From the NCBI GenBank assembly GCA_031406795.1, contig JANOHV010000218.1, forward strand, positions 1-36,764: a DNA stretch of 36,764 nt, in the 5' to 3' direction. Position 1 is the stretch's first letter. Each line of letters begins with the position of its first letter. The notes beneath the pieces were generated by a model, which was not told the DNA's origin, did not search any database, and saw nothing but the letters and a program-made list of their open reading frames with translations. Shown one piece after another: positions 281 to 15,999 of this stretch. Made by a program: the position numbers and the translations under genes. This DNA is from Candidatus Rokuibacteriota bacterium. Its GTDB lineage: Bacteria > JAUVQV01 > DATDCY01.

Positions 281-2991
281 ACCCAAACCTCAGCACCATC
301 GCCAACCGCCTGAGCCTCCGTAAACCCCAGCGCGACTCGCTGGAGATTCTCGCCCGCCTCTGCGAGATCGTGTCGCTGCAGAAGAGCACCGACGTGGCCC
401 AGGCGCTCAAGACTATTCAGGCCGAGTACGCCACGGTCAGCGACTTCGAGCGCGATTTCCCGTCGCTCTGCTTTGCATTGGCGACCGGTGTGGGCAAGAC
501 GCGGCTCATGGGCGCGTTCATCGCCTACCTTTTCAAGGCCGAGGGTATCCGGCATTTCTTCGTGCTGGCGCCGAACCTGACCATCTATAACAAGCTCATT
601 GCCGACTTTACGCCCAACACGCCCAAATACGTCTTTCAGGGGATCTCCGAATTTGCCGTGGAACCGCCGGAAATCATCACCGGCGACAACTACGAGATCG
701 GGCGCGGCGTCCGCAAGAGGGACCTCTTCGGCGAATCGGCCGTCCACATCAACATCTTCAACATCTCGAAGATCACGAGTCTGGAGACGCCCAAGGGAGC
801 CGAGAAGACCACGATCCCCCGTTTTCGGCGGCTGCAGGAGTATATCGGAGAGAGTTACTTCGAGTACCTGTCGAAGCTCGACGACCTCGTGCTGCTTATG
901 GACGAGTCGCACCGCTACCGGGCATCGGCGGGCATGAGGGCGATCAGCGAATTGAAGCCCATTCTCGGCCTCGAACTGACCGCCACGCCGCATATGGAGC
1001 GCGGCGGCGGGACGCAGGTGTTCCAGAACGTCATCTATGCCTACCCGCTGTCGAGCGCCATGACGGACGGGTTCGTCAAGGAACCAGCCGTGGCGACTCG
1101 CGAGAATTTCAATCCGAAGAACTATGACGTGGCCGGTCTGGAGCGGCTGAAGCTGGAAGACGGCATCCGCATCCACGAGAACACCAAGGTCGAGTTGGAG
1201 GTCTACGCCCGCGAGAACGGCAAGTCGATCGTCAAGCCCTTCATGCTGGTGATCGCCAAGGATACCGATCACGCAAACGCCCTGGTGAAGGTCATTGAAG
1301 ACGAGGCGTTCTTCGAGGGGCGCTACAAGGGCAAGGTCATCCAGGTCCACTCGAAGCAGACCGGCGAGGAGCGGGACGAGACCGTTGAGCAGCTGATCAA
1401 CGTGGAGAAGGCAGACAACCCGACGGAGATCGTCATCCATGTGAACATGCTCAAGGAGGGTTGGGACGTCACCAATCTTTACACCATCGTCCCGCTCCGG
1501 GCGGCAAACTCGCAGACGCTGGTGGAGCAATCCATCGGCCGCGGGCTGCGCCTGCCCTACGGTAAAAGAACAGGCGTGGGCGCGGTGGACCGGCTGACCA
1601 TCGTGTCGCACGACAAGTTCCAGGAGATCGTGGACTACGCCAACAGTGCCGACTCCGTCATCCGGGGCGGGATGAGGATAGTCTATATCAGCGAAGAGCG
1701 TTCCAAGGTCGTGATCGCAGAGCCGGAGATTATGCAGCGACTTCAGGAACCGCTGATCGCTTCGGATAACATCAAGGGCGAGTACAAGGTTGTGCATCCC
1801 AAATTGCTGTTCGAGAACCCCAGGGAGCAGGAAGCGGCCAAGGCAACGCTCGAGGTCATCCGTCGGGAGTTCGAGCGCCTGCCAAGTTCCGCCGACCTCG
1901 CCAAGCCGGACATCCAGAAGCAGATTGTTGACAAGGTGAAGAAGATCATCACCCCGGTGCAGCCGGAGTTGGTAGGTGTCGCCGTGCCGGTGAACGTGGC
2001 CGAGGTGGTGGCCAAGACCATCACCCTGCGCAATGAACTGTCCATCGACATTCCCCGCATCACGATCCAGCCCGTGGGCGACGTGACGCGCGGGTTCCGG
2101 GAGTTCAATCTCGACCTGTCCAGCGTGCGACTACAGCCGGTGGACAACGAGATTCTCATTCAGGAGCTGCACCGCCGGGAACAGTTCCGGCTCATGAGCG
2201 GCACTGGCATTGTCCCGGAAGAGAAGCTCGAAGACTATCTCGTGCGCGGGCTGATCGACTTCAACGACATCTGCTACGACGACCATGCGGCGCTGCTCTA
2301 CAAACTGGCCGGGCAGGCCGTGACGCACCTGCGTAGCTACCTCAAGAACGAGGACGAGGTGCTGAATGTGCTTCAGTACCACCAGCAGGCGCTGGTGAAT
2401 CTGATTCATGCCCGGATGCAGGAGCACTACGAGGAGAAAGCGACCGCCTACGAGGCGCACGTGAGCAAGGGCTTCACGACGCTCCAACCCAATAACTACT
2501 CGGCTCCTTCCGGTGAAGGCGAGCGGGACTTCCGCGCCACGGTCGCCGACCTACAGGATATCCGCAAGATGCTTTTTGCCGGGTTCGGCAAGTGTCTCTA
2601 CCGCGTCCAGAAGTTCGATTCGGATTCGGAACGCCGCTTCGCCGTGGTACTGGAGAACGACAAGGAAGTCCTCAAGTGGTTCAAGCCCGCCAAGAGCGTC
2701 TTTCAGATCCACTACACCAGCGAGGCGTCCTACGAGCCGGACTTCGTGGTCGAGACCAGGACGGCTAAGTTCCTCTGCGAGCCCAAGGCCGCGAACGAGA
2801 TGACGGCGGGAGATGTGCTGGACAAAGCCAAAGCGGCGGCGGAATGGTGCGGCCATGCTACGGTGCACGAGAAGCAATACGGCGGCAAAACGTGGGCGTA
2901 CCTGCTCATTCCGCACGACGCGGTTGCGGACAACAAGACACTTCAGGGGCTGGCGGCAACCTACACCTATGGTGGGGCATCCAGAAGTTAA
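277..2991 (+). CDS. res: Type III restriction endonuclease Res subunit (SF2 helicase plus C-terminal PD-(D/E)xK nuclease)
   Basis: 904 aa. Walker A ATGVGKT, Walker B DESH, motif III LTATP, LKEGWD, QSIGRGLR, and C-terminal YEPDFVVE..EPK nuclease motif. Coupled to mod. Confidence 0.9.
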   Translation: MNPNLSTIANRLSLRKPQRDSLEILARLCEIVSLQKSTDVAQALKTIQAEYATVSDFERDFPSLCFALATGVGKTRLMGAFIAYLFKAEGIRHFFVLAPNLTIYNKLIADFTPNTPKYVFQGISEFAVEPPEIITGDNYEIGRGVRKRDLFGESAVHINIFNISKITSLETPKGAEKTTIPRFRRLQEYIGESYFEYLSKLDDLVLLMDESHRYRASAGMRAISELKPILGLELTATPHMERGGGTQVFQNVIYAYPLSSAMTDGFVKEPAVATRENFNPKNYDVAGLERLKLEDGIRIHENTKVELEVYARENGKSIVKPFMLVIAKDTDHANALVKVIEDEAFFEGRYKGKVIQVHSKQTGEERDETVEQLINVEKADNPTEIVIHVNMLKEGWDVTNLYTIVPLRAANSQTLVEQSIGRGLRLPYGKRTGVGAVDRLTIVSHDKFQEIVDYANSADSVIRGGMRIVYISEERSKVVIAEPEIMQRLQEPLIASDNIKGEYKVVHPKLLFENPREQEAAKATLEVIRREFERLPSSADLAKPDIQKQIVDKVKKIITPVQPELVGVAVPVNVAEVVAKTITLRNELSIDIPRITIQPVGDVTRGFREFNLDLSSVRLQPVDNEILIQELHRREQFRLMSGTGIVPEEKLEDYLVRGLIDFNDICYDDHAALLYKLAGQAVTHLRSYLKNEDEVLNVLQYHQQALVNLIHARMQEHYEEKATAYEAHVSKGFTTLQPNNYSAPSGEGERDFRATVADLQDIRKMLFAGFGKCLYRVQKFDSDSERRFAVVLENDKEVLKWFKPAKSVFQIHYTSEASYEPDFVVETRTAKFLCEPKAANEMTAGDVLDKAKAAAEWCGHATVHEKQYGGKTWAYLLIPHDAVADNKTLQGLAATYTYGGASRS

Positions 2992-3046
2992 TAGTGTTGG
3001 GGGCGCCGTCGTCATCAAACCGGAATCTGCTCGCTGAAATATCCTC

Positions 3047-3075
3047 TTGACACGATACAGTAGCGATGCTATCGT
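3047..3075 (+). promoter_or_regulatory. sigma70-type promoter for the sulfite-reductase-like gene
   Basis: TTGACA (3047-3052), 17 bp spacer, TATCGT (3070-3075) preceded by TG. Confidence 0.6.
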
Positions 3076-3119
3076 AATAGTAGTAAATAAGAAACGAGCT
3101 ATCGAAAAGGGGTTCGAAT

Positions 3120-3197
3120 ATGAGCGAGGCCGTTGTTCCGACCAGCCGGAAGATGGGTCTCGCTCTGTCAGTCCGCCGCACGCTCATCTGTAGCTAG
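3120..3197 (+). CDS. Putative 25-aa leader peptide MSEAVVPTSRKMGLALSVRRTLICS
   Basis: AAAAGGGG 7 nt before the ATG. Lies in the long leader between the promoter and the reductase, ends in Cys-Ser, and is immediately followed by a hairpin (3196-3232). Confidence 0.35.
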   Translation: MSEAVVPTSRKMGLALSVRRTLICS

Positions 3198-3339
3198 CCT
3201 GGCGCTCCGGCAGTCCCGCGGAATGCCAGGCTCTCCCCCAGTCGCATGCATTCATCTGACGACAACGCCATCACGTAGTCACAGAGTTGCTGGCGTTCCA
3301 CCAAGAAAGCGAGCGCGAAAGAACACGGGAGGTGATACG

Positions 3340-4218
3340 GTGAGCGAGATCGATTACCGGGAGTTGAAGCGCGGCGGCGTGATGCGCCAGCAGGGGGAAG
3401 ACCGCTTTCTGGTGCGGCTGCACCTGGTTGCCGGTGGACTAAGTAGCGGCCAGGCCCGTGTGGTGGCTGAGGCAGCGGACCAGTTCGGCAGCGGTGCACT
3501 GCACTTAACGAGCCGTCAGGGGATCGAGATCCCGGACGTCAGTTCCGGTGCGCTGACAGAGCTCAAAGAGTTCTTGGCATCCTCTGGGATAGGATTCGGG
3601 GTCAGCGGGCCGACCGTTCGCGGTGTCACTGCCTGCCAGGGCTGCCACGTCTGCCCGAATGGCGTCATCGACAGCCCGAGTCTGGCGGCGGAGGTTGATC
3701 GTGCGTTCTACGGAAAACATGCGCCCCACAAGTTCAAGGTCGGCATCAGCGGCTGCGCGAACAACTGCCTCAAAGCCGAGGAGAACGACCTCGGCGTCAA
3801 GGGGTGGATCGAGCCGCGCTGGAGCGGAGATGGTTGCACCGGCTGCGGTCTCTGCGTTGCAGTCTGCCCGGTGAAGGCGATTCGGATCGGCGGTGACAGC
3901 GGATCCGTCGAGATCGAGACCGCTCGCTGCATAGGATGCGGAGACTGCATTAACTCCTGCCCGACGACCGGCATGGTGGAGCAGACACGTGGTTACCGGA
4001 TCTACTTTGGGGGTAAACTGGGACGTGTACCTTACCTGGGGCAGCCGGTGTCCGGAGTGTTCACCGGTACCGCGGGTGTCCTCGGCGTCATCGCGGAGGC
4101 CCTGGAGTTCTTCCGACTTCACGGGCGTGCCCGCGAGCGCTTCGGCGACACGCTTCAGCGCGTGGGCTTCGAGACATTGGCGGCGCACATCGGCGCGCCG
4201 GCGAGGAGGGTCGCATGA
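3340..4218 (+). CDS. Siroheme-[4Fe-4S] nitrite/sulfite reductase-like protein (AsrC/Dsr-like small type) with inserted 2x[4Fe-4S] ferredoxin domain
   Basis: GTG start at 3340 after GGGAGGTG. HLTSRQGIE, Cx5C (CQGCHVC), PHKFK, Cx3C (CANNC), and ferredoxin motifs CTGCGLCVAVCP and CIGCGDCINSCP. Confidence 0.85.
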   Translation: MSEIDYRELKRGGVMRQQGEDRFLVRLHLVAGGLSSGQARVVAEAADQFGSGALHLTSRQGIEIPDVSSGALTELKEFLASSGIGFGVSGPTVRGVTACQGCHVCPNGVIDSPSLAAEVDRAFYGKHAPHKFKVGISGCANNCLKAEENDLGVKGWIEPRWSGDGCTGCGLCVAVCPVKAIRIGGDSGSVEIETARCIGCGDCINSCPTTGMVEQTRGYRIYFGGKLGRVPYLGQPVSGVFTGTAGVLGVIAEALEFFRLHGRARERFGDTLQRVGFETLAAHIGAPARRVA

Positions 4219-4280
4219 CACGGCGCCTGGACATTCAGCGCTACATCTGCCCGATGACCACCGTCAATCGACCACGATGA
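4215..4280 (+). pseudogene. Truncated TusA/SirA-family sulfur carrier remnant (MTRRLDIQRYICPMTTVNRPR*)
   Basis: GAGGAGG SD and ATGA overlap with the reductase stop. Carries the N-terminal LDxxxxxCPMT motif, then stops at 21 aa; no TusA-like continuation in other frames. Confidence 0.6.
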
Positions 4281-4376
4281 TGCCGATGACCAACAGTGAG
4301 GAGAAGATAAAATCCCAGCGACGATCGGCGTCGTTATGTGGCTGTAGAGGTAAACTCCAACCGGTCGCAAGCCCTC

Positions 4377-4613
4377 TCAGGATTTCCTGATAAGAAACCG
4401 GAACAGGCCCTCGCTTCGGTTTGTTTCGATGATCGCGTGCCCGAGCCTCTGGACCAGTGCGCTGATGTCCGATTCCGATCCGAAGTCAGTGGCCATGACT
4501 TCCATGACCTGGCCGGAAAGGAGCCGGGCCAGGCCCCGCTTGGTGTTCAGCACCGGCATCGGGCAAGCTTGCCCTCGCGTGTCGACCACCAGATCGACTT
4601 TGATCTCAGGCAT
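4377..4613 (-). CDS. TusA/SirA-family sulfurtransferase (78 aa)
   Basis: VDTRGQACPMP (CPxP persulfide Cys), VMATD.GS, C-terminal FRFLIRK. SD AAGGGAG. Confidence 0.9.
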   Translation of the reverse strand: MPEIKVDLVVDTRGQACPMPVLNTKRGLARLLSGQVMEVMATDFGSESDISALVQRLGHAIIETNRSEGLFRFLIRKS

Positions 4614-4662
4614 CGTCTGCTCCCTTCGGTCAATGGTTTGACGCCACTCCTGGACTGGATAT

Positions 4663-4678
4663 TGCAAGAGGAGTGCCA
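4663..4678 (-). promoter_or_regulatory. sigma54 -24/-12 promoter for tusA
   Basis: Minus strand TGGCACTCCTCTTGCA with exact GG-N10-GC spacing. Confidence 0.8.
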
Positions 4679-4717
4679 GCAACATCGCGTAATGCAAGGT
4701 GTTAAGATGATGACGTC

Positions 4718-6212
4718 ATGACGAGCCAGGCAACCCCTCCGCAGCCTCCGGGAGACCGGTTCTCGATCCTGTACGACATCGCCCTGACGGTCGGCAAGTC
4801 GCTCGATCTCAAGAGGATTCTGGACGATGTTCTCGACCGGATCATCCGTTTCATGGGCGTCGACGCCGGCGTCATTTATGTCGTCGACGACGCAACCATG
4901 GAGATGATACCCGTCTCGTTCAGGAATTTGTTGGAAGAGGTCGTCAGGGACCTCAGCGAAAAAAAGGTGAAAGTGGGCGAATGCATGTGCGGGACCATTG
5001 CACAATGCAATCAGGAGGTGATCATCACCGAACGGGCATACGAAGACCCGCGATTCACGCGTGGTGTGCTGAAGAAGGAGGGTATGGAGTTCTACGCCGG
5101 CCTCCCCATCCTCGCCAGAGGCAAGGTGGTGGGCGTGCTCTGCGTCATCAACCACACCCCCTACCAGCTCGACCGTGAACTTCTCGACATTCTCAGGGCT
5201 GCGACGCAGCCGATCGGCCTTGCCATCGAGAATGCCCGGATTTTCGAAACCGTCAGGAAGGAGGCGGACGCGAGGATTCGCTACTTCAACTTCGAGGGGA
5301 TTATCGCCAACAGCCCCAAAATGACCAGCATCCTCAGCCTCGTGCGGAAGATCACCGATGTGCCCACGAGCATCCTGATCTACGGGGAAAGCGGCACCGG
5401 CAAGGAATTGATCGCGCGGGCCATCCACTTCAACAGCATCCGCAAGGACCGGCCCTTCGTCGCCGTCAACTGCGCTGCCCTCCCGGAGAGCCTGCTGGAA
5501 TCGGAGCTCTTCGGTTACGTCAAGGGCGCTTTCACCAGGGGCCGGCGCCGACAAGAAGGGGCTCTTTGAGGCAGCCGACAACGGCACCATGTTTCTGGAC
5601 GAAGCGGAGGCAATGAGCGGCAATCTGCAGGTCAAGCTGTTGCGGGTCCTGCAGGATGGCGCTTTTCTCAAGGTCGGGGGCACGCAACCGTGCCAGGTGA
5701 ACGTGCGGATCATCGCGGCCTCGAACAGAAACCTCGAGGAGGCGATCCGGGAGAAACGCTTCAGGGAAGACCTCTACTATCGGCTGAACGTGATCCGTAT
5801 CGATCTGCCGCCGCTTCGGGACCGGCGCGAAGACATTCCCCTGCTGACGAGATACTTCATGGCAAAATACAGCAGGAAGATCGGAAAAAATGTTCGCAGA
5901 ATCGCCGACGACGCAATGCAGGCGCTGGTGTGGTATCCCTGGCCAGGCAATATCCGAGAGCTCGAGAACATGGTCGAACGCGCGCTGGTAGTGACCGAAA
6001 CCGACGAAATCAGAAAAGAAGACCTGCCTGTCGAACTGCTGGGCAGAGCGGACGATATGCACAAAGACCTCACCCTGAAGTCCATCGAGAAGGACCACAT
6101 CTTCCACGTACTGAAACTTACCGGGGGCAACAAGAAACTGGCGGCGCGAGAGTTGGGGGTGAATGCTGCCACCCTCTGGAGAAAATTGAAGTCGTTCGCT
6201 GAGGCCCACTGA
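4718..6212 (+). pseudogene. GAF-AAA+-HTH sigma54 enhancer-binding protein (NifA/FhlA-like) with a +1 frameshift
   Basis: ORF 4718-5569 has [11 protein letters not shown] and ESELFG..KGAFT. ORF 5589-6212 has FLDE, FREDLYYRLNV, WPGNIREL and a Fis HTH. Removing the A at 5537 restores GAFTGA and a continuous frame. True pseudogene or sequencing error. Confidence 0.85.
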
Positions 6213-6315
6213 TTGCATTTTGCCGAATCGCTGTATTTCGTATTATTTCAATAACTTATCGTGATTTTTCCTGGATCACCCGCAATTGACCCTTCGTTGT
6301 GATTGCATTTTGCAA
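6210..6315. promoter_or_regulatory. Candidate enhancer (UAS) sites: 14-bp direct repeat TGATTGCATTTTGC
   Basis: Copies at 6210-6223 and 6300-6313; the second extends to the dyad TTGCA-TTT-TGCAA (6303-6315), ~120 bp upstream of a sigma54 promoter. Confidence 0.55.
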
Positions 6316-6435
6316 GACTGTTCGACTGCAAGGCCGCTGAGTGATCCTGTTCAAACTGACTCTTGCTGCCCAAATCCGGGCGCTTTGCCTTTCTTTCAGC
6401 TTGGGCAAACCATGAAAGACCGGTCTCGGTGATTA

Positions 6436-6451
6436 TGGCATGGCTCATGCA
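6436..6451 (+). promoter_or_regulatory. sigma54 -24/-12 promoter for the osmC-like/dsrE-like operon
   Basis: TGGCATGGCTCATGCA, GG-N10-GC. Confidence 0.7.
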
Positions 6452-6484
6452 ATTGCCCATGCAAACCTACACGGAGGAACGGCG

Positions 6485-7015
6485 ATGACGATGATCAACG
6501 GTCTCGAAGTGGACAACCTGGTCAAGGTAGTCGAGGCGGTCAAGCAGAAGTGGGAGATGGGCAAGACGGTCTGGAAGGCCTCAACCACATGGAAGGGCGG
6601 CTTCAAGGTCGAGACCTGTTCGCGCGACTTCACGCTGCTGGCGGACGAGCCGGAGATGCTCTGCGGCACCAACACGGCGGCCAACCCCGTCGAGATGGTC
6701 CTTCAGGCGTACGGCGCCTGCCTCTCGATCGGCTACGCGATGAATGCGGCGGTCCGCGGGATCAAGATTCATGACCTGAAGATCGATCTCGAAGGCGAGA
6801 TCGACCTTCCCGGCTTTCTCGGTCTCGAAGCACCCGAGAACCTGAAGATGGACAAGCTCCCCGGCTTCAAGACCATCGATGTGAAGGTAAAGATCAAGGC
6901 CGACGCCACTGCGGAGGCGCTTCGTCAGCTCCACGCGCACGTGGTGGGCACCTCTCCGGTCGGCGTTACGCTCGCGCGTCCGGTCAAGATCGTCACGGGC
7001 GTGGAGGTCTTGTGA
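6485..7015 (+). CDS. OsmC/Ohr-family protein (long INGL..DEP..G.N..ANPVE subtype)
   Basis: SD GGAGG. Motifs DEPEMLCGTNTAANPVE, GACL, EGEIDLPGFLG, and TSPV at the second-Cys position. Confidence 0.85.
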   Translation: MTMINGLEVDNLVKVVEAVKQKWEMGKTVWKASTTWKGGFKVETCSRDFTLLADEPEMLCGTNTAANPVEMVLQAYGACLSIGYAMNAAVRGIKIHDLKIDLEGEIDLPGFLGLEAPENLKMDKLPGFKTIDVKVKIKADATAEALRQLHAHVVGTSPVGVTLARPVKIVTGVEVL

Positions 7016-7431
7016 TCCAGCTGCTCGGTCAGACGGCGACGGATGAGCGCCTCTCCTGTGCCGAGCAGCCGCACTATGCGATCGTCTGCGCCACCGGATT
7101 CGAGAACGAGGAGCGGGTCCGGTCGGCGCTGATGTTCGCGGCATTGGCGGCCTCGGCGGATTACCAGACCGTCCTGTACTGCATCCAGGGCGCGGTTGAA
7201 GTGATGGTGAAGGGTGCGATCGCAGCGCGCGAGACGCCGCGACCGGGCCTGCCATCGATCGCCCAGCGGCTGCAGGAGGCTTTGGAAATGGGGGTGACGA
7301 TTCAGTGCTGCACCCAGACCATGGCGAACAAGGGCATCTCCCCCGCTGATCTCGTGGACGGCGTGGCTCCAGCTGGGGCAATGAGCCTGATTGCATTGAC
7401 GACCCGCGCGAAGGGCACGATCAGCTTCTGA
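7012..7431 (+). CDS. DsrE/DsrF-family sulfur-relay/peroxiredoxin-like protein
   Basis: GTGA overlap with the osmC-like stop. GVTIQCCTQT and GISPADLVDGV..AGA motifs; typical DsrE size. Confidence 0.75.
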   Translation: MIQLLGQTATDERLSCAEQPHYAIVCATGFENEERVRSALMFAALAASADYQTVLYCIQGAVEVMVKGAIAARETPRPGLPSIAQRLQEALEMGVTIQCCTQTMANKGISPADLVDGVAPAGAMSLIALTTRAKGTISF

Positions 7432-7440
7432 TTCTGAGCA

Positions 7441-7471
7441 CCGTCGGGGGAGGACAGCCCTCTCCCGGCGG
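7441..7471. terminator. GC-rich hairpin between convergent dsrE-like and binding-protein-fold genes
   Basis: CCGTCGGGGGAGG pairs with CCTCTCCCGGCGG (13 bp, two G-U pairs). No U-tract. Confidence 0.35.
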
Positions 7472-7535
7472 CGCTCCGAAATGCAAGAGGTACGATTGAT
7501 ATTGGAAAGCGCAAATATCATGACAGTCAAGCTGG

Positions 7536-8462
7536 TCAGCCGTGGTAATGATCGGGCTCCGGGTGGATCGAATCGATAAGGGTGCGGTCGAATATCTCCT
7601 GTTCTGCGACCTCGCGGCCGATGTAGCCGAGCCGCCTGAGCGCTCGTGCGAACGTCATCGTCGCGGCGACGTACGGTTCGGTCAGCCGGGCACAGTAGTG
7701 CGGCGAGACTTGAAGCGTCTCGAGGATAAAGTCCCTGTCGATGATCCCGACATGCGCCGCGATGTCCCTGGCGGCCGAATCCGGATCCGACCGAAAGACG
7801 GCAGTCGCTTCCTCGTGCAGCCGCAGGAACCGCTCCACACAAGAGCGGTGATCTTCGAGAAATGGTCGGGAGACAATGACCCCGTAGCTGGGATTGCCGG
7901 GCCAGAGCCGGGAGGGCGGATAGAGAATCCTGCCGCCGGCAAAGCGGCGGATCGCGACGGCGAGCGCCGGCGTCCCGACAGCGGCGGCCACTTCATTGTT
8001 GACAACGGCCTCGGTCACCAGATCGGCCCATGGGTAGTTCACGACCTCGATCTTGCCGGAGAGATCGTGTCGTTCAAGACAGTCCTTGAGGATGACGTCG
8101 TGTATCGACCCCGTACCCGGCACGCCGAGTTTCAAGCCATCGAACTGACGGAGAACGTCTCCGAGGTCGTCGAGTTCCGGGAAGCCCCGCCAGCAGTCCC
8201 TGCCGGCCATCACGGTGCCTTCGATGTGCCCGCCCGCCACACAGACCACGCTGCTCCCACGCTCGATGCCGATGATCGCGGGCGGCAACCCGATGTAGGC
8301 CAGATCGAGCTCGCCGCGGCCGAAAGACGCCATGATCGCGGGCCCCGTCCCCATGAGCCGCCACTCGACGCCGACGCCGAGCCGCTCCGGCACGGTGCCT
8401 CGAGCCATGAGCAGCACGGCGGTGTGGTAGAAGGTCGACAGGTGCCCGATTCGAACGATCAT
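7536..8462 (-). CDS. NitT/TauT (SsuA/NMT1-like) substrate-binding-fold protein lacking a signal peptide
   Basis: TGPAIMASFGRGELDLAYIGLPP and GVPGTGSIHDV motifs. Starts directly at strand 1 (MIVRIGHLS); in-frame TGA at 8480-8478 excludes an N-terminal extension. Confidence 0.8.
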   Translation of the reverse strand: MIVRIGHLSTFYHTAVLLMARGTVPERLGVGVEWRLMGTGPAIMASFGRGELDLAYIGLPPAIIGIERGSSVVCVAGGHIEGTVMAGRDCWRGFPELDDLGDVLRQFDGLKLGVPGTGSIHDVILKDCLERHDLSGKIEVVNYPWADLVTEAVVNNEVAAAVGTPALAVAIRRFAGGRILYPPSRLWPGNPSYGVIVSRPFLEDHRSCVERFLRLHEEATAVFRSDPDSAARDIAAHVGIIDRDFILETLQVSPHYCARLTEPYVAATMTFARALRRLGYIGREVAEQEIFDRTLIDSIHPEPDHYHG

Positions 8463-8640
8463 GGGACTGTAGTAGCCTCATGCCGGGCCGGCGTCAAGGC
8501 GGGCGGGAGACTTGGCTGCCCCGCCCGGGGTTGCCGCGTTGCCGGCCGCTGTGATACGTATTTGCCATGAGAACCGCGTTCCGCTGCACGAGCGACAGTC
8601 GCCCCGCGCGTTGCGACGAGCGCGATACGGACAATCCCTC

Positions 8641-9900
8641 ATGAGCCACTTCGGACTGCGGTGCCGCAAATGCGCAAAGCTACTCCAGGACACCTACTGC
8701 GCGTTCTGCGAGCACTGCCGCGACGCGCTGCTCGTGAGCGACTACGGCGGCGCGCGGTTTTCGGAAATGAGCGGGGAGGGGATCTGGCGATTCAACTGGC
8801 TCCCGGTGCACGCGCCCTCCTTTGCGCAGCCGGGGCCCAGCGTCTACCGATCCCGCGGGCTCGCGATGCACTTCGGGCTCGAAAACCTCTCCGTGGTGTT
8901 CAATGGCTACTGGCCGGAGAAAGGCGCTTTTCTCGAGACCTGCACCTTCAAAGAGTTCGAAGCCTCGGTGGTGTTGCAGAACGCGCGGGAGAATGGCGTC
9001 GAGGGGCTGACCGTCGCATCGGCGGGAAACACAGCGCGATCTTTCGCGTACCTTTCGGCGCAGACCGGCTACCCGGTGGTCATCGTGGTGCCGGCGATGT
9101 GCCTGACCGAGATGTGGTACCACAAGCGATCAAAGGACGTCCCCACGGTTGTGGTCGCCGACGGCGACTACTCCGACTCGATCGACGTCGCCCGGCGGAT
9201 TGCGGCGACTCTCGGATTTCCGTTCGAAGGCGGCGTCAAGAATGTCGCCAAGCGTGACGGACTCGGCCTGGTGCTGCTCGAGGCGGTGGCTGCGCTGAAG
9301 AGCCTCCCGGGCCACTACTTCCAGGCGGTGGGAAGCGGCACGGGAGCCATCGGTGTCTGGGAGATGAGTGAGCGTTTTCTCGCCGATGGGCGGTTCGGCT
9401 CCCGGCTCCCGGTTCTGCACCTGGCGCAGAACCTGCCGTTTGCGCCGATGACAAAGGCCTGGGCGCGCCAGGAGCGGCACCTCGAGCCGGCGGATCTGTT
9501 GCCGGAGCTGATCCCCGAGATCACGACGAGAGTACTCTCCACGCGTTATCCGGCGTACACGATCGCAGGCGGCGTCTATGATGCCCTCACCGCCACCCGG
9601 GGGAGGATGTACGGCGTGCGCAATGGGGAGGTCTACGCGGCGATGGAGTTGTTCCGTCGGCTGGAGGGAGTCGATATCGTCCCCGCTGCCGGGGTTGCCG
9701 TTGCCGCGCTGGCGCAGGCAGTCGCCGCCGGCGTGCTGCGGCCGGACGAGACCGTGGTGCTGAACATCACCGGCGGCGGGGAAACGAACCTGGCGCCGGA
9801 GCTCATGACCCGGACGCTGCGCCAGCACATCGTGTCGAAGGCGATCACGCACAAGGAAATCAAGGAGCTGCTGTGTCCCGTCCTGAAGAAGAGCTGCTAG
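8641..9900 (+). CDS. Cysteate synthase (PLP-dependent, threonine-synthase fold, Methanosarcinales MA3297 type)
   Basis: N-terminal Cys cluster; FNGYWPEKGAFLETCTFKEFEA (PLP Lys), ASAGNTARSFA, EGGVKNVAKRDGLG, HYFQAVGSGTG, RFLADGRFGSRLP, QNLPFAPM. These are signatures I recognise from cysteate synthases rather than ThrC. Confidence 0.88.
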   Translation: MSHFGLRCRKCAKLLQDTYCAFCEHCRDALLVSDYGGARFSEMSGEGIWRFNWLPVHAPSFAQPGPSVYRSRGLAMHFGLENLSVVFNGYWPEKGAFLETCTFKEFEASVVLQNARENGVEGLTVASAGNTARSFAYLSAQTGYPVVIVVPAMCLTEMWYHKRSKDVPTVVVADGDYSDSIDVARRIAATLGFPFEGGVKNVAKRDGLGLVLLEAVAALKSLPGHYFQAVGSGTGAIGVWEMSERFLADGRFGSRLPVLHLAQNLPFAPMTKAWARQERHLEPADLLPELIPEITTRVLSTRYPAYTIAGGVYDALTATRGRMYGVRNGEVYAAMELFRRLEGVDIVPAAGVAVAALAQAVAAGVLRPDETVVLNITGGGETNLAPELMTRTLRQHIVSKAITHKEIKELLCPVLKKSC

Positions 9901-11021
9901 GGATCCTCAGCGCAAACGGTACGGACTTCACGGCCTCGCTGCCCTGCGAGAAGATCAAAGTCCTGCTCGAGATGCTCGGCAGGACGTTTCCCCACGTGCC
10001 GCTCACGCGCGAAGAAGAGGGGGTGGGGATCTGCGCCGGCGCTTCCCTCGCGGGCCGCCGGCCGGCGATGTTCGTTCAAAGCTCCGGCATTGGCAACATG
10101 ATCAACGCGCTTCTCTCGTTGACCGATTTCTACGAGCTGCCGCTGGCGCTCTTCGTGAGCCGTCGCGGCGTTTACCAGGAGCGGATCGCCGCACAGCTGC
10201 CGATGGGTCTGCGGCTACCCGGCATGCTCGACGGCGCAGGGATTCCGTGGACAGAGGTCAACGTTCGCGGGGATCTTGCGGCGGTGGCGCGCATTTTGCC
10301 GCAGGTCTATGAACGCGGCGGCATTCACGCCTTTCTGATGAGTCCAGCGGTGTGGGAGGATTCCGAGTGCCAGGGTGGTGGTGCGCCAGCGATCGGTGCT
10401 CGGCGGTCGTGCCGGCCGGAATGCCCCGAACCGACCGGAGGGTGCCGCCGCCCGATCCCGGTACACACTCGTTTCGAGATCCTGCGGCTGATCGCCCCGC
10501 AGCTCGAGGGGAAGGTCGTCGTCTGCAACCTTGGCGCCCCCTCGAAGGAGTTGTACTCCCTGCGGCACCAGCCGTCGAATTTCTACATGCTCGGCAGCAT
10601 GGGCATGGTTACGCCGATCGGTCTCGGGGTGGCGCTCTCGACGCTGCGGGAGGTCGTGGTCATCGACGGCGACGGCAGCCTGCTGATGAACCCAGGCACG
10701 CTCGCGGTGTGCGCGGCCGCGGCGCCGAAGAATCTGACCATTCTCGCCATCGACAACGGGGCCTACGGTTCGACCGGCAGCCAGCCGACCCACGCGGCCA
10801 CCTGCGTCGACCTCGAGCAGGTGGCGCACGGGTTCGGCGTCGCGAATACCCTGAAGACGGCGGGGGGGGCGGATCTGATCGCGGCGATGGGCACGTGCGG
10901 GGAAGGCCCGCTGTTCGTTCACGCGCTTGCCGTGCCGGGAAATGCGGAGGTTCCGAATATTCCACTGGATCAACTGGAGAACAAGCGCCAGGTGATGGCA
11001 TTTCTTCACGCAGGCTGCTAG
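9873..11021 (+). CDS. comDE: Fused sulfopyruvate decarboxylase alpha-beta (ThDP-dependent)
   Basis: GTG start after AAGGAG, overlapping cysteate synthase. Alpha part SLPCEKIK, LTREEEGVGICAG, QSSGIGNMINAL. Beta part NLGAPSKEL, NFYMLGSMG, DGDGSLLMN..DNGAYGSTGSQ. Confidence 0.88.
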   Translation: MSRPEEELLGILSANGTDFTASLPCEKIKVLLEMLGRTFPHVPLTREEEGVGICAGASLAGRRPAMFVQSSGIGNMINALLSLTDFYELPLALFVSRRGVYQERIAAQLPMGLRLPGMLDGAGIPWTEVNVRGDLAAVARILPQVYERGGIHAFLMSPAVWEDSECQGGGAPAIGARRSCRPECPEPTGGCRRPIPVHTRFEILRLIAPQLEGKVVVCNLGAPSKELYSLRHQPSNFYMLGSMGMVTPIGLGVALSTLREVVVIDGDGSLLMNPGTLAVCAAAAPKNLTILAIDNGAYGSTGSQPTHAATCVDLEQVAHGFGVANTLKTAGGADLIAAMGTCGEGPLFVHALAVPGNAEVPNIPLDQLENKRQVMAFLHAGC

Positions 11022-11055
11022 AGCCGACCGGTTTCCCGCCGGGGGCTCTTCCCCG

Positions 11056-11084
11056 TTGACAAGACTCATGCGGAAGATGATATT
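11056..11084 (+). promoter_or_regulatory. sigma70-type internal promoter for moeB-JAB-moaD
   Basis: TTGACA (11056-11061), 17 bp, GATATT (11079-11084). Confidence 0.5.
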
Positions 11085-11153
11085 CACCGCCAGATGGTGG
11101 ACCAACAAGATCATTCAGGCGACAGGACGCTGGAGAAACCTCGGGTCTGAGTC

Positions 11154-11954
11154 ATGGAATTCACGGAAGAGCAGATCCTCCGCTACAGCCGTCACCTCAT
11201 TCTCCCCGAGGTCGGGGGCGATGGGCAGGAACGACTCCTGAACGCGAAGGTGGCGCTCGTGGGGGCCGGCGGTCTGGGCTCCCCGGTCGGGTATTATCTC
11301 GCCGCGGCGGGGGTCGGCACCATCGGCGTGATCGACGACGACCGGGTGGAATTCTCGAATCTCCAGCGCCAGATCGCCCACAGCACGCGGCAGGTCGGCA
11401 CGCTCAAAGCCGAGTCGGCCAAGACGACCTGGGAGGCGCTCAACGGCGACGTGCGAGTGATCGCCCACGCGACGCGGCTCACGGCCGCGAACATCCGCGA
11501 AATCATCGGGGAGTACGACATCGTCGCGGACGGCAGCGACAATTTCCCGACGCGCTACCTGGTGAACGACGCCTGTGTCATGATGAAAAAAACGCTGATC
11601 AGCGCCGCGGTCTTCCGCTTCGAGGGGCAGGTGATGGGGATTTACCCAGGAGAAGGTCCGTGCTACCGCTGTCTCTTCGAAACCCCGCCGCCGGCCGGCA
11701 TGGTGCCCTCCTGCCAGGAGGCCGGCGTTCTCGGCGTGGTGCCCGGCGTCATCGGCACGCTGCAGGCGACGGAAGTGCTCAAGGCGATCCTGGGCATCGG
11801 CGACCCGCTGCGCGGCCGTCTACTGATCTGGAACGCGCTTGAGATGAGCTTCACGACCGTGAATGTCCCGCGCAACCACGAGTGCCCGGTCTGCGGCGAC
11901 CACCCGACGATCATCAACCTGCTCGGCGGCGAACGCTCCTGCAGCATGGGATGA
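11154..11954 (+). CDS. moeB: MoeB/ThiF/HesA E1-like adenylyltransferase (no rhodanese domain)
   Basis: RYSRHLILPEVG, GAGGLGSP, SNLQRQ, DGSDNFPTRY, Zn motifs CYRC and CPVC, PSCQEAGVLG. Confidence 0.92.
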   Translation: MEFTEEQILRYSRHLILPEVGGDGQERLLNAKVALVGAGGLGSPVGYYLAAAGVGTIGVIDDDRVEFSNLQRQIAHSTRQVGTLKAESAKTTWEALNGDVRVIAHATRLTAANIREIIGEYDIVADGSDNFPTRYLVNDACVMMKKTLISAAVFRFEGQVMGIYPGEGPCYRCLFETPPPAGMVPSCQEAGVLGVVPGVIGTLQATEVLKAILGIGDPLRGRLLIWNALEMSFTTVNVPRNHECPVCGDHPTIINLLGGERSCSMG

Positions 11955-12391
11955 GCACTGCCGCCCTGACGATGGCCGGTGATGTACTTGCGGCAATCCT
12001 CGAACATTGCCGCCGGGAACTGCCGAACGAGGCGTGCGGGATCCTCGGCGGCAGGGCCGGCAGGGTCGAGAGCGTCCATCCGGTGCAAAGTGCGCACCCG
12101 AGTCCTTCGCGTTTCGCTATGGAACCGACGGCGCAGTTCCTGGCGATGGACGAGGTGAGCCGCGCTGGCCGGGAACTGGTGGGGATCTATCACTCTCACC
12201 CGGGCGGGCCTGCCGTTCCGTCAACTACCGACCTGCAGGAGGCCTGCTGGCCGGGGACGACGTTGCCGAATTACCCCGAGGCAATTCAGGTGATTGTGTC
12301 GCTCCTGGAGCGCGCCGCACCGGTCGTGAGGGGGTACGCAGCGGATCGGGGGATGTTCGTTGAAGTGCCGATTATCATTGACGAACGATAA
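11951..12391 (+). CDS. JAB/Mov34 (M67, Mec-like) metallopeptidase
   Basis: EACG..IYHSHP....PSTTD JAMM motif; ATGA overlap with moeB. Confidence 0.9.
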   Translation: MSTAALTMAGDVLAAILEHCRRELPNEACGILGGRAGRVESVHPVQSAHPSPSRFAMEPTAQFLAMDEVSRAGRELVGIYHSHPGGPAVPSTTDLQEACWPGTTLPNYPEAIQVIVSLLERAAPVVRGYAADRGMFVEVPIIIDER

Positions 12392-12421
12392 GCAGTTGGA
12401 TGACACAATGCGGAGGAGCTC

Positions 12422-12700
12422 ATGCCGGTCACCGTCAGGATTCCCACGCCGCTGCAGCGGTTCTCGGGTGGCAAGTTGAATGTGTCGTGCAGCGCGACGA
12501 GCATCGAGGGATTGTTGGAAGCCCTGGAGATGGCGCACCCGGGGATGAAGGAACGACTGACCGTTGGCGGTAAGGTTCGTCCCTTCATCAATATCTATGT
12601 CAACGGCGAGGACATCCGCACCCTTGACGCGGAGGCCAGTGTGCTCAAAGATGGCGACACAGTCGCGATCATTGCCGCCATTGCGGGTGGTCACGGATAG
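12422..12700 (+). CDS. MoaD/ThiS/CysO-family ubiquitin-like sulfur carrier with masked C-terminus (AIAGG-HG)
   Basis: VRIPTPLQRF, INIYVNGEDIR, LKDGDTVAIIAAIAGGHG. SD GGAGGAG. Confidence 0.92.
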   Translation: MPVTVRIPTPLQRFSGGKLNVSCSATSIEGLLEALEMAHPGMKERLTVGGKVRPFINIYVNGEDIRTLDAEASVLKDGDTVAIIAAIAGGHG

Positions 12701-12815
12701 CGCCTCTTACGTTTAGCGACCGTCATCAAGGACCGTCGCACTGAAGGGGCAGGCCTCAAAGTCGCGGGGGGGGTGATTGGAGGGTATAACCGGCAGGAGA
12801 GGCACTTCGATTGCG

Positions 12816-12850
12816 GAATAGTCTCCAGTACGCTGAAGAATAGTCTTCAG
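12816..12850. promoter_or_regulatory. Tandem enhancer-like sites upstream of the cus operon
   Basis: GAATAGTCTYCAG at 12816 and 12838 (22 bp apart). The second lies in the perfect dyad CTGAAGA-ATAG-TCTTCAG (12833-12850). An AT-rich tract follows. Confidence 0.6.
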
Positions 12851-12902
12851 CCCTCTTCGATCTGCCCTGACTTAAGTATCTTAATACTGATAGTTACCTG
12901 CT

Positions 12903-12918
12903 TGGCATCACAATTGCT
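12903..12918 (+). promoter_or_regulatory. sigma54 -24/-12 promoter for the tolC-tolC-cusBA operon
   Basis: TGGCATCACAATTGCT, GG-N10-GC. Confidence 0.8.
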
Positions 12919-12946
12919 TTCCAGTAGATCACAGGAGGAGGAAGGC

Positions 12947-14317
12947 ATGACGAGCGACATCCGGAGCTGGACGACGGCAACAAGAACGGTCGCCATGATC
13001 GCCGGCGTCGCGCTGGTCGTGCTGGCGTGCTCGCCGACGGCGCGGGCGGAGACTCCCCCGGGAGCACCAGTTCACGTTGCGGAGGCGGCCGCCCTCGAAG
13101 CAAACCTGGCCGGGAAGGCGGCGCTGAGCGACCTCGTCGCCATCGCTTACCAATCCAATCCGATGATCCGCGCGGCGCGCGCCGAGTGGCGCGGCACCGT
13201 AGAGAAGTACCGCGTCGACACGTCCTGGCCCGAACCCGAGCTGATGGCGGAGGGGATGTACGCTGCGGACACCCTGGGCGAGACGACAAGACCGATGGGC
13301 TGGAGCCTCGGACTGACTCAGGCGATCCCGCTGTGGGGCCGTCAGGGGAGCGCCGGAAGACTGAGCAGCGCCGAAGCGAAAATCGCCAGGCTCAAGCTGG
13401 ACGCCACGCTCCGGGACGTCGTTGTCCAGATCCGCCAGTCTGCCGCCGAGCTGCGCTACCTCGAGACGGCCGTGGAAATCGTGCAGGGCCAGCAGTTGCT
13501 GCTCGGAAAACTGACGGCGGCGGGTGCCGCGGCCTACACCGCGGAGCGCGCCGGCCTCTACGAAGTGATGAAGGCGCGCGCGCAGTCCGGTCAACTCGAT
13601 TACGACGCCCTGCTCCTCGAGGAGTCGGCGCGCACGGAAAAGGCGCGGCTCAACGCCCTGCTCCATCGCGCCCCGGACGCGCCGATCGGGCCGATCACGG
13701 CGGAGCCGGCCCGGCCCGTGTTGTACGAGCTCCACGAAATCGATGCGTTGGCCGACGCCAACGCCGAGGACCTGCGGATCGCCCGCGCCGAGGTGGAGCG
13801 CAGCGAGGCGATGGCGGACCTCACGCAATACGAAACCCTCCCGGGATTCAAGCTCGGGCTCTCCTATGGACTGGCGAACGAGGTGAATCAGGTCGGGATT
13901 CAGGCCACCGTGATGCTGCCCCTGCGGCGGGGGAAGAACGCCGGGCTGCTCGGCGCGGCCCGGGCCGACAGCGACAAGATGCGGGCGATGTACGGCGCAA
14001 AGATGAATGACACCCGCACCGCGGTCCGGGATCTCGCTTTTCGGCTCAAGAACGCCGAGCGGCTCGTGAGCCTCTACCGTGACGACCTCACCCCGCAGGC
14101 CGAACGCGCCCTGCAAACGGCGCAGACCCGCCTCGCTCAGGGTCTCGGCGGCCTCGGCGACGCCGCGGAGGCGCAGAGCGCCTGGTACGGCTTCCGGCTG
14201 GCTCTTGCGCGCGCGGAGGCGGATCGCACCGTCATGCTGGCGAGACTCGAAGCGCTCGCGGGCCGCAGCCTGACCGAACGCGAGGACGCTGTCGTCCGCC
14301 CGGAGGAGGCGAAATGA
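12947..14317 (+). CDS. TolC/CusC-family outer membrane efflux protein 1
   Basis: SD AGGAGG; signal peptide; AYQSNPMIRAARA and LGLTQAIPLWG OEP repeat features; heads an RND operon. Confidence 0.8.
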   Translation: MTSDIRSWTTATRTVAMIAGVALVVLACSPTARAETPPGAPVHVAEAAALEANLAGKAALSDLVAIAYQSNPMIRAARAEWRGTVEKYRVDTSWPEPELMAEGMYAADTLGETTRPMGWSLGLTQAIPLWGRQGSAGRLSSAEAKIARLKLDATLRDVVVQIRQSAAELRYLETAVEIVQGQQLLLGKLTAAGAAAYTAERAGLYEVMKARAQSGQLDYDALLLEESARTEKARLNALLHRAPDAPIGPITAEPARPVLYELHEIDALADANAEDLRIARAEVERSEAMADLTQYETLPGFKLGLSYGLANEVNQVGIQATVMLPLRRGKNAGLLGAARADSDKMRAMYGAKMNDTRTAVRDLAFRLKNAERLVSLYRDDLTPQAERALQTAQTRLAQGLGGLGDAAEAQSAWYGFRLALARAEADRTVMLARLEALAGRSLTEREDAVVRPEEAK

Positions 14318-15876: not shown

Positions 15877-15899
15877 CAAAGACATTCGCGATCTGCCTC

Positions 15900-15968
15900 G
15901 GGAGGGTCTGAAACCCTCCCCTACATCCCGGATCGGGAACAACGTAGGGGCGGGATTTATTCCCGCCC
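15900..15968. repeat. Inverted pair of GTAG-type REP elements (REPIN/BIME-like)
   Basis: GGGAGGGTCTGAAACCCTCCCCTAC (15900-15924, minus-strand REP) and GTAGGGGCGGGATTTATTCCCGCCC (15944-15968), each a hairpin, with a small TCCCG-GAT-CGGGA hairpin in the spacer. Confidence 0.7.
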
Positions 15969-15999
15969 GAAAGGCATAACCGCAGAAGGAGCGAGGATC

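Follow-up and report, generated by a model that had tools for sequence, protein, structure and literature searches.

Two genes of the methanogen route to coenzyme M stand, on a bacterial contig, directly before the genes of a protein-thiocarboxylate sulfur relay, and this locus raises the question of whether the two sets form one pathway, in which the relay would supply the thiol sulfur of coenzyme M. The stretch analyzed here (the window) is a whole 36.8-kb contig, namely the 36,764 nucleotides of JANOHV010000218.1 from an uncultured sediment bacterium of Candidatus Rokuibacteriota (assembly GCA_031406795.1; its genome is G000 below). The locus at issue, positions 3047–12700 (60–66% G+C; Table 1), holds a cysteate synthase gene overlapping that of a fused sulfopyruvate decarboxylase, ComDE, and, on the same strand, the genes for a MoeB-type E1 enzyme, a JAB metalloprotease, and a ubiquitin-like sulfur carrier (the trio). 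An earlier note on this DNA had coupled the pair to the trio. Our analysis instead favored, with a probability of roughly 0.6, a reading of the locus as two adjoining units that are not functionally tied, namely a pair for C2-sulfonate synthesis and a general thiocarboxylate module.

The identities of the first two genes were assessed with curated family models and solved structures. The product of 8641–9900 scored 455.1 bits on TIGR03844, the equivalog model of cysteate synthase, against a cut-off of 324.9, and 85.4 bits on the best threonine synthase (ThrC) model, the cut-off of which is 303. Among 14 control genomes, that of Methanosarcina acetivorans was the only one with a protein passing the TIGR03844 cut-off. 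The alignment of 8641–9900 with the structure deposited as 'Cysteate synthase' (PDB 9k3c) reached 286.8 bits over residues 6–385, as compared with at most 51.2 bits for ThrC structures, and its relatives of 419 amino acids aligned over the full length. Relatives of the cysteate synthase fell into 190 clusters at E ≤ 1e-30; the ESM Atlas labels the nearest clusters 'putative Cysteate synthase', with Methanobacteriota as the commonest phylum, which we regard as a lead only. As for ComDE, the alpha (ComD) half exceeded the cut-off of TIGR03845 (165.3 versus 147.95 bits), and the beta (ComE) half fell 8 bits short of that of TIGR03846 (213.1 versus 221.5 bits).

The assignment to be weighed against ComDE is phosphonopyruvate decarboxylase, with which the locus would make a phosphonate: the closest solved structures to 9873–11021 are putative phosphonopyruvate decarboxylase subunits (78 and 58 bits), and no sulfopyruvate decarboxylase is found among its five PDB matches. 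However, the protein gave 191.9 bits on the phosphonopyruvate decarboxylase model itself (TIGR03297), the cut-off of which is 312.5, whereas its scores on the ComD and ComE models sum to 378 bits. Moreover, phosphoenolpyruvate (PEP) mutase (TIGR02320) was not matched by any protein of G000, a genome of 99.9% completeness, and the gene is constantly paired with cysteate synthase. A phosphonate locus is thus extremely improbable.

The profile comparison with ThrC and phosphonopyruvate decarboxylase, which the earlier note had called for, accordingly grouped the pair with cysteate synthase and ComDE instead. A cysteate synthase gene running with a 28-nucleotide overlap into a fused comDE was confirmed, and the model and structure scores, together with the failure to find PEP mutase, made a methanogen-type route to sulfoacetaldehyde in a bacterium a sound reading. 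Judged from these similarities, the two proteins appear to be true copies of the archaeal enzymes, cysteate synthase being predicted to form L-cysteate from O-phosphoserine and sulfite, and ComDE to convert sulfopyruvate to sulfoacetaldehyde and CO2. With a housekeeping aminotransferase, the pair would lead from O-phosphoserine and sulfite to sulfoacetaldehyde, as in the opening part of the 'type 2' coenzyme M route of methanogens; the scores thus support a putative archaeal-type route to a C2 sulfonate in this bacterium.

The company that the pair keeps in other genomes bears directly on what it may serve. Public databases already list numerous close relatives of 8641–9900 under the label 'cysteate synthase', from uncultured bacteria that are mostly Nitrospirota. 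A one-genome-per-species scan with the cysteate synthase returned 455 relatives and a metagenome scan at least 478, and the best 80 loci of each were examined; partners were counted by tblastn on the 80 genome loci, and ORF (open reading frame) clustering and family scans were also applied, the ten largest neighbor clusters being given family names. The cysteate synthases of these loci are 63–76% (genomes) and 63–92% (metagenomes) identical to that of the window, and are followed by ComDE at 77 of 80 genome loci and 76 of 80 metagenome loci. Both ORF clustering and family scans showed that the pair closes a same-strand operon in the genome loci. Directly upstream of cysteate synthase lies a gene for an HdrD/DsrK-like CCG-domain protein (78/80 by tblastn and 70 loci by ORF clustering), and the further partners at the genome loci are DUF6951 (64/80), a DsrM-like cytochrome b (63/80), a RACo-type reductive activator (61/80), a ferredoxin (57/80), a B12-binding corrinoid protein (54/80), an MtaA/CmuA-like URO-D methyltransferase (52/80), an MtrH-family methyltransferase (50/80; a representative scored 338.8 bits on NF002142, cut-off 287), and a CMD-family protein (41/80). 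At the metagenome loci, many of which are short, the HdrD-like gene was found in 67/80 and the DsrM-like gene in 41/80. Among named families, the HdrD-like protein best matched TfrB of the thiol:fumarate reductase acting on coenzymes M and B (178.6 bits, below the cut-off); MtaA/CmuA-like and HdrD-like genes occur in G000 as well, with scores below the family cut-offs. In bacteria, the pair would normally end an operon of putative corrinoid methyltransferases and a DsrMK/HdrDE-like membrane thiol-disulfide reductase, the counterparts of which lie on other contigs here. No published description of such a Nitrospirota cysteate synthase–ComDE operon was found among the best-ranked literature matches.

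A gene for an SsuA/NMT1-like protein, which in the window diverges from cysteate synthase, was found near the pair at 12/80 genome and 14/80 metagenome loci, and adjoins it in a genome of the same genus (G001). The protein scored 77.4 bits on SsuA_fam, below the cut-off of 163.5; judged by eye from its N-terminus, it apparently lacks a signal peptide and would be cytoplasmic. The ESM Atlas clusters nearest to it mix archaeal members, Methanobacteriota being commonest in one cluster, with Nitrospirota members, a lead that it may belong to the same archaeal-type gene set.

The three genes behind ComDE were in turn confirmed as a sulfur-carrier module, as the earlier note had it. MoeB scored 292.1 bits on NF004281, above the cut-off of 266, the JAB protein carries an intact H-S-H-x7-S-x2-D motif, and the translated carrier ends in -A-G-G-H-G, two residues past Gly-Gly. 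The three proteins thus show the hallmarks of a thiocarboxylate module: an E1 of the ThiF family, a JAMM protease whose metal motif is intact, and a ThiS/MoaD carrier extended beyond Gly-Gly. Because two residues follow the Gly-Gly, the carrier needs trimming, and the JAB protein would be the enzyme that trims its C-terminus. MoeB is the only PF00899 (ThiF) match above the cut-off in G000, where MoaD adjoins MoaE on contig C144 and ThiS is encoded on contig C198; we infer that this sole E1 must load MoaD, for molybdopterin, as well as, probably, ThiS.

The earlier note had proposed that the thiocarboxylate sulfur of the trio is added to sulfoacetaldehyde to yield coenzyme M, in a last step unlike that of archaeal ComF, and co-conservation of trio and pair had been set beforehand as the condition for this coupling. 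No such co-conservation was observed: MoeB, JAB, or carrier genes were found within approximately 10 kb of the pair at none of the 80 genome and none of the 80 metagenome loci, nor did any of these 160 loci encode proteins of the Nitrospirota-type module described below at ≥35% identity. The adjacency of trio and pair is confined to G001, of the same genus, and near-identical strains. In addition, the trio holds the only E1 of the genome, which must serve MoaD–MoaE and ThiS as well, a promoter-like site precedes MoeB, and no enzyme that would carry out thiocarboxylate attack on an aldehyde and the ensuing reduction is encoded beside the trio. In G001, the module's own first gene, for a YedF/TusA-like protein, stands between ComDE and MoeB (47 nucleotides in the window versus 294 in G001), and the module therefore came with a first gene of its own.

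The orthologues of the trio in Nitrospirota form a separate cluster, whether or not cysteate synthase is encoded in the same genome. This was seen at 18 Nitrospirota loci around JAB genes, drawn from 10 genomes with cysteate synthase and 8 without. MoeB adjoins JAB at all 18 and is 54–81% identical to that of the window at 17 of them and 43% at the remaining one (L229); a carrier is present at 15 (41–61% identical), 11 of which have residues after the Gly-Gly. A ThrC-family gene occurs at 11 of the 18 loci, mostly between JAB and the carrier, together with YedF/TusA-like (7/18), CysK/M (5/18), and MetY (1/18) genes at some, and none of the 18 holds a cysteate synthase orthologue, ComDE, or the sulfite-reductase-like gene. 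At L213, the one locus of this set that was annotated, the order is homoserine dehydrogenase, YedF/TusA-like protein, MoeB, JAB, threonine synthase (TIGR00260, 280.7 bits; cut-off 167.1), a carrier ending in -GGRG, and an ApgM-type 'proposed homoserine kinase' (573.3 bits; cut-off 446.3). Where cysteate synthase and JAB share a contig, they lie 321 kb (G041), 111 kb (G337), and 873 kb (G299) apart. As JAB was found in 278 of 301 Nitrospirota genomes, its presence is nearly universal in that phylum, and thus cannot discriminate between the readings. The trio is accordingly an orthologue of a housekeeping module, which in one genus stands behind ComDE. From the homoserine genes and ThrC-family partners of its relatives, we infer a role in methionine-type sulfur transfer. 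MoeB, JAB, and the carrier would then be the general protein-thiocarboxylate module of the cell, the JAB–carrier pair would be the counterpart of a Nitrospirota cluster resembling the MetO/Mec/MoeZ/MetM homocysteine system, and the adjacency to ComDE would be a gene-order feature of one genus.

The recurrence of ThrC-family genes in these clusters also bears on a further alternative, in which 8641–9900 would use the carrier thiocarboxylate instead of sulfite as nucleophile and convert O-phosphoserine to cysteine, with JAB releasing the product. The CysM–CysO system of mycobacteria makes cysteine from O-phosphoserine with a carrier thiocarboxylate in this manner, and the ThrC-family gene nearest to the trio here is cysteate synthase itself. 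Nevertheless, none of the 160 loci with relatives of this enzyme, at the identities given above, has a carrier gene nearby, its constant follower is ComDE, which has no role in cysteine synthesis, and G000 has CysK/M genes of its own. Together with the 455 bits on the cysteate synthase model, these observations render such a cysteine synthase very unlikely.

As to the acceptor of the trio's sulfur, the earlier note had stressed that no sulfhydrylase occurs. This holds for the window, in which no pyridoxal-phosphate-dependent acceptor (MetY, CysM, or ThrC-like MetM) stands beside the trio, but not for the genome, which has MetY-like and CysK/M genes on contigs C51, C70, and C145. In two further genomes of the genus, G002 (88% complete) and G003 (95% complete), MoeB orthologues (81% and 73% identical, respectively) lie amid genes for a histidine kinase, an FMN reductase, an amidase, and glucose-6-phosphate dehydrogenase; a search with the window protein (E ≤ 1e-10) found no JAB in either, and no carrier gene lies beside their MoeB. 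Weaker ThiF-family matches beyond the MoeB orthologue number three in G002 and one in G003.

Several findings weigh against keeping the two units functionally apart, most of them being those that speak for the thiocarboxylate-dependent formation of coenzyme M. The genes lie on one strand with a gap of 132 nucleotides between ComDE and MoeB; the block of NMT1-like gene, cysteate synthase, ComDE, MoeB, JAB, and carrier is intact in both G000 and G001, with both flanks differing; and a contig from a different study likewise bridges ComDE and MoeB. G000 and G001 each have cysteate synthase and JAB, and neither gene was found in G002 or G003; this joint pattern may reflect a single event, because the two genes are neighbors and the genomes close kin. 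The ThrC-like partner expected of the housekeeping module has no close orthologue in G000, where the best match is 27% identical, and neither it nor a sulfhydrylase stands beside the trio. The absence of COG1900 proteins from all 58 Nitrospirota carriers of cysteate synthase (see below) furthermore implies that some sulfur donor other than ComF is needed if the product is a thiol. Finally, cysteate synthase and ComDE were not found in G003 despite its intact methyltransferase/Hdr-like operon; the link between operon and pair is thus not obligatory, and G003 may import the sulfonate or not need it. Set against 0 of 160 loci, the separate Nitrospirota cluster, and the single E1, however, these points leave the delivery of thiocarboxylate sulfur to sulfoacetaldehyde an unlikely event, and we retain the reading of two units that merely adjoin.

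If the trio does not complete the route, its last step has to be sought elsewhere. According to a passage of PMC11844431, the archaeal ComF enzyme is MMP16, which belongs to COG1900 and bears a ferredoxin domain, and an L-ASST homologue may partly replace it. The earlier note had seen no ComF in the window, and indeed the window holds no COG1900 gene; G000 has one, on contig C191, which scored 516 bits on PF01837 but, on the MMP16 model TIGR03287, 118.9 bits, far below the cut-off of 363.95. This gene is followed by those for a NIL-ferredoxin and a class V aminotransferase, which is the arrangement of L-ASST, so that the statement stands for ComF proper but passes over an L-ASST-type COG1900 enzyme elsewhere in the genome. 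By its family, the enzyme could act on sulfoacetaldehyde in G000. In a sample of 301 Nitrospirota genomes, cysteate synthase was found in 58 at E ≤ 1e-60 (55 above the cut-off) and PF01837 in 10, and not one of the 58 carriers had both; PF01837 was likewise found in none of five carriers checked, one of them a closed chromosome (two, G041 and G042, also belong to the sample). Because 0 of the 58 Nitrospirota carriers have COG1900, an L-ASST-type enzyme cannot be the general last step. In the same sample, 9 of the 10 PF01837 genomes were among the 23 of 301 with no JAB match, a nearly complementary distribution that fits alternative sulfur-insertion routes to homocysteine.

A bacterial system with no ComF leaves two outcomes: a product other than a thiol, or the thiolation and reduction of sulfoacetaldehyde by a conserved member of the operon. 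In the former case, sulfoacetaldehyde would be turned into a non-thiol C2 sulfonate (taurine, isethionate, or sulfoacetate, as an osmolyte or lipid head group) or serve in sulfite binding, and no coenzyme M would be formed. The lack of MMP16/ComF in G000, where the COG1900 gene reaches 119 bits on TIGR03287 against 364, and of any COG1900 gene in the 58 Nitrospirota carriers and the five checked genomes accords with this, as do the sulfonate-binding-fold protein adjoining the pair and the presence of DsrAB in the genome, with sulfite as a metabolic intermediate; a passage of PMC12019592, moreover, reads the bacterial cysteate synthase gene of one genome as a possible anaerobic taurine route. 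Nevertheless, no taurine aminotransferase, sulfoacetaldehyde reductase, or Xsc-type enzyme was recognized among the conserved neighbor clusters, of which the ten largest were named, and the conserved MtaA/CmuA-like and HdrD/TfrB-like neighbors are of families that handle the coenzyme M thiol or disulfide in methanogens. Because the conserved neighbors belong to families that methylate or reduce coenzyme M in methanogens, the gene neighborhood favors a thiol as the probable product, with a non-thiol sulfonate as a real but minor possibility. On the two-unit reading, the product would most likely be coenzyme M or a close sulfonate thiol, and the sulfur-inserting enzyme would be one other than ComF. 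Candidates for this last step are the HdrD-like/DsrM-like pair, DUF6951, which has three conserved Cys residues and one His, and a 201-amino-acid protein of no named family encoded in the same operon.

The host phylum is small, with 6 genomes in the searched set, and distinct from Nitrospirota; the best named protein match is labeled Candidatus Methylomirabilia. All the operon genes are nonetheless present in G000, in three places: contig C33 holds the methyltransferase genes, DUF6951, and the 201-amino-acid protein, which are 40–90% identical to Nitrospirota proteins; contig C68 holds the DsrM-like/HdrD-like pair (36% and 73% identical, respectively); and the window holds cysteate synthase and ComDE. 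The genes of G001 run in the order DsrM-like protein, HdrD-like protein, 201-amino-acid protein, the divergent SsuA-like protein, cysteate synthase, ComDE, YedF/TusA-like protein, MoeB, JAB, and carrier. At this locus (L091, C18:512000–531900), cysteate synthase is in three pieces and ComDE in two, in several frames, which reflects either decaying genes or long-read assembly errors. The operon of corrinoid methyltransferase, DUF6951, DsrM-like, HdrD-like, and 201-amino-acid proteins stands in one piece in G003 (L211, C335:8000–27900). Elsewhere in G000 (C13:28359–36522), a DsrA gene (560.7 bits, above the cut-off) adjoins a DsrB-like gene, upstream of which the DsrM-like and HdrD-like proteins gave weak tblastn matches (30% identity and 32% over 79 amino acids, respectively). 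With DsrAB, G000 therefore has a dissimilatory sulfite reductase system, with sulfite as a metabolic intermediate.

The sulfur genes upstream of the pair offer another view of possible donors. The earlier note had counted a sulfite-reductase-like gene among the pathway neighbors. Its product scored far below the cut-offs of both sulfite_red_C (AsrC; 127.6 versus 324.1 bits) and dsrB (100 versus 341.5 bits), and a relative was found near the pair at 0/80 genome loci and 1/80 metagenome loci (29% identity). Nor is it shared by the closest relative contig, L102 (cysteate synthase 92% identical), in which homology to the window begins at 4377 and takes in TusA (83% identical), the activator in one frame, the OsmC-like (92%), DsrE-like, and SsuA-like proteins, cysteate synthase, and ComDE. 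The gene thus drops out of the conserved neighborhood. The TusA-like remnant at 4216–4281 probably marks a rearrangement joint. At C51:6656–6894, downstream of the MetY-like and CysK/M genes, lies a frameshifted C-terminal remnant of a sulfite-reductase-like paralogue (75% identical over 59 residues). The two remnants are signs of earlier rearrangement among sulfur-assimilation genes, and hint that this type of sulfite-reductase-like gene once stood with sulfhydrylases in a Wolinella-type layout.

Two of the upstream genes recur beside the pair in distantly related genomes: DsrE-like genes (58–60% identical) lie between cysteate synthase and ComDE at two Thermodesulfovibrionia-type loci (L063:11362–11727 and L069:2027–2392), and in a Nitrospira-labeled genome ComDE is immediately followed by an OsmC-like gene (86% identical; L081:12512–13039). 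At 3 of 160 loci this is a weak lead, yet it makes a TusA/DsrE-type persulfide relay no worse a candidate for the sulfur donor than the thiocarboxylate. A wider proposal may then be framed, which we hold to be possible but rather doubtful: bacteria of at least two phyla would make coenzyme M or a relative by the archaeal front end and a last step other than ComF, and would use it with soluble corrinoid methyltransferases and a quinone-linked HdrDE/DsrMK-like reductase, and in this genus the pair would have been brought between protein-bound sulfur donors, the TusA/DsrE-like persulfide carriers to one side and the E1–JAB–carrier module to the other, one of which would feed the thiolation of sulfoacetaldehyde.

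We then compared the locus with the known systems. The cs-comDE-MMP16 cluster of M. acetivorans (MA3297–MA3299) represents the phosphoserine-dependent 'type 2' coenzyme M pathway, as stated in PMC11844431. As in that cluster, a fused ComDE comes immediately after cysteate synthase, a dedicated aminotransferase is lacking, and the same curated models are matched. In contrast to M. acetivorans, MMP16/ComF is encoded neither beside the pair nor elsewhere in G000, which has a single COG1900 gene, one of L-ASST type; the host here is bacterial and has DsrAB, and the other neighbors differ. The Nitrospirota operon resembles the locus, with cysteate synthase 63–76% and ComDE 50–69% identical, the same gene overlap, an SsuA/NMT1-like neighbor, and all operon genes present in G000 (those on C33 and C68 being 36–90% identical). 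The differences are that these genes occupy three places here, and that the pair is flanked by TusA, OsmC-like, and DsrE-like genes and the thiocarboxylate trio.

The Wolinella HcyS/HcyD/HcyF proteins form a thiocarboxylate sulfur-carrier system. The window trio resembles it, as well as the MetO/Mec/MoeZ/MetM system, in combining an E1, a JAMM protease, and a MoaD/ThiS-type carrier with residues past Gly-Gly. The latter system carries out thiocarboxylate-dependent homocysteine synthesis in Streptomyces (Table 2 of PMC13759103). The layout of L213 is that expected for MetO/Mec/MoeZ/MetM, as is the ThrC-family gene in 11 of the 18 orthologous Nitrospirota clusters. In contrast, the window trio has no ThrC-like (MetM) or MetY gene beside it, and its E1 lacks a rhodanese domain. 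Finally, the Xcb route of Xanthobacter autotrophicus starts from phosphoenolpyruvate (XcbB, of ComA type), proceeds via sulfoacrylate, and takes its thiol from cysteine, as described in part of PMC9457059. The route considered here would share with it a bacterial host, a C2 sulfonate thiol as product, and sulfite as the sulfonate source, but none of the Xcb enzyme types was found in the window, the rest of the genome not having been searched for them.

The genes and sites of the locus, called from the ORF listing and from Pfam and NCBIfam family scans of the window, are summarized in Table 1. All the genes named in the earlier note were found at or near their places, except that TusA lies on the minus strand; overlooked in its gene list were the minus-strand SsuA/NMT1-like gene and the frameshift in the activator. 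The plus-strand ORF 7542–8570 was rejected as a gene, as it has no family match and its place is occupied by the SsuA/NMT1-like gene. In the activator, one base at 5537 is absent from related-strain contigs in 4/4 runs, and L102 has a single frame; the split is either a real frameshift in the population or an assembly error. The sigma-54 promoters that had been taken as a sign of bacterial context stand as two perfect sites (4664–4678 on the minus strand and 27233–27247), although the pattern is not enriched, with 22 occurrences at ≤2 mismatches in the window versus 32.6 expected. An Rfam scan of window positions 2800–13000 at E ≤ 0.1 yielded no riboswitch or other RNA family. Of the flanking genes, the helicase at 277–2991 matches an endonuclease domain weakly at its C-terminus (21.0 bits versus a cut-off of 23.4) and is of a restriction or defense type. 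At the other end, 12773–20846 is a copper/silver-type efflux set of two tandem OEP genes, a CusB-like adaptor with a heavy-metal-binding domain, and a CusA-type RND pump; the junction between the carrier gene and the OEP gene is preserved in related strains.

Table 1. Features of the locus and its 5' neighbor, with positions in the window
Feature	Position	Strand	Basis and remarks
Type III restriction-like helicase, ResIII/SNF2, 904 amino acids	277–2991	+	Just 5' of the locus
Small siroheme sulfite-reductase-like protein, 292 amino acids, two-[4Fe-4S] ferredoxin insert	3340–4218	+	NIR_SIR 96.2 bits, NIR_SIR_ferr 58.2 bits
TusA-like remnant, 21 codons	4216–4281	+	Overlaps the sulfite-reductase-like stop codon; C-P-M motif, read directly
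TusA sulfurtransferase, 78 amino acids	4377–4613	-	Pfam TusA 74.7 bits; CPMP motif
Sigma-54-type promoter, perfect TGGCAC-N5-TTGC	4664–4678	-	Upstream of TusA, 0 mismatches
GAF/sigma-54 AAA+/HTH_8 transcriptional activator, in two frames (4718–5569, 5589–6212)	4718–6212	+	Pfam
OsmC-like protein	6440–7015	+	Pfam OsmC 65.3 bits
DsrE-like sulfur-transfer protein	7012–7431	+	Pfam DsrE 54.8 bits; 4-nucleotide overlap with the OsmC-like gene
SsuA/NMT1-like sulfonate-binding-fold protein	7536–8462	-	NMT1_2 64.8 bits; divergent from cysteate synthase
Cysteate synthase, 419 amino acids	8641–9900	+	TIGR03844 455.1 bits
Fused sulfopyruvate decarboxylase ComDE, 382 amino acids	9873–11021	+	TIGR03845, TIGR03846; overlaps cysteate synthase by 28 nucleotides
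Sigma-70-like promoter TTGACA-17 nucleotides-GATATT	11056–11084	+	10/12 consensus matches only; in the 132-nucleotide gap before MoeB
MoeB/ThiF-type E1 adenylyltransferase, without rhodanese domain	11154–11954	+	Pfam ThiF 273.9 bits
JAMM/JAB metalloprotease, Mec/HcyD-like	11951–12391	+	Prok-JAB 85.5 bits; ATGA overlap with MoeB
MoaD/ThiS-family sulfur carrier ending in -A-G-G-H-G	12422–12700	+	Pfam ThiS 50.4 bits

Coenzyme M is known from methanogens, other alkane-metabolizing archaea, and a few alkene-oxidizing bacteria that use a different route (as stated in parts of PMC9457059 and PMC11844431). What is new here is a second phylum with the cysteate synthase–ComDE pair, the dispersed layout of the system, the identity of the adjoining sulfur-carrier genes, and the result that no COG1900 gene was found in the Nitrospirota carriers. 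The negative outcome for the coupling has a meaning of its own, in that a housekeeping role accounts better for the adjoining thiocarboxylate genes, which seemed to supply the last step, and the 58 Nitrospirota carriers with no COG1900 gene of any kind sharpen the question of the sulfur-inserting step. The window also presents a natural case of the biosynthetic pair standing apart from the genes that would use its product. If it is true that sulfate- or sulfite-respiring sediment bacteria produce coenzyme M by archaeal enzymes and employ it together with methyltransferases and an Hdr-like reductase, this would be a new thiol cofactor system in bacterial one-carbon and sulfur metabolism, and would bear on how the methanogen coenzyme M pathway has spread.

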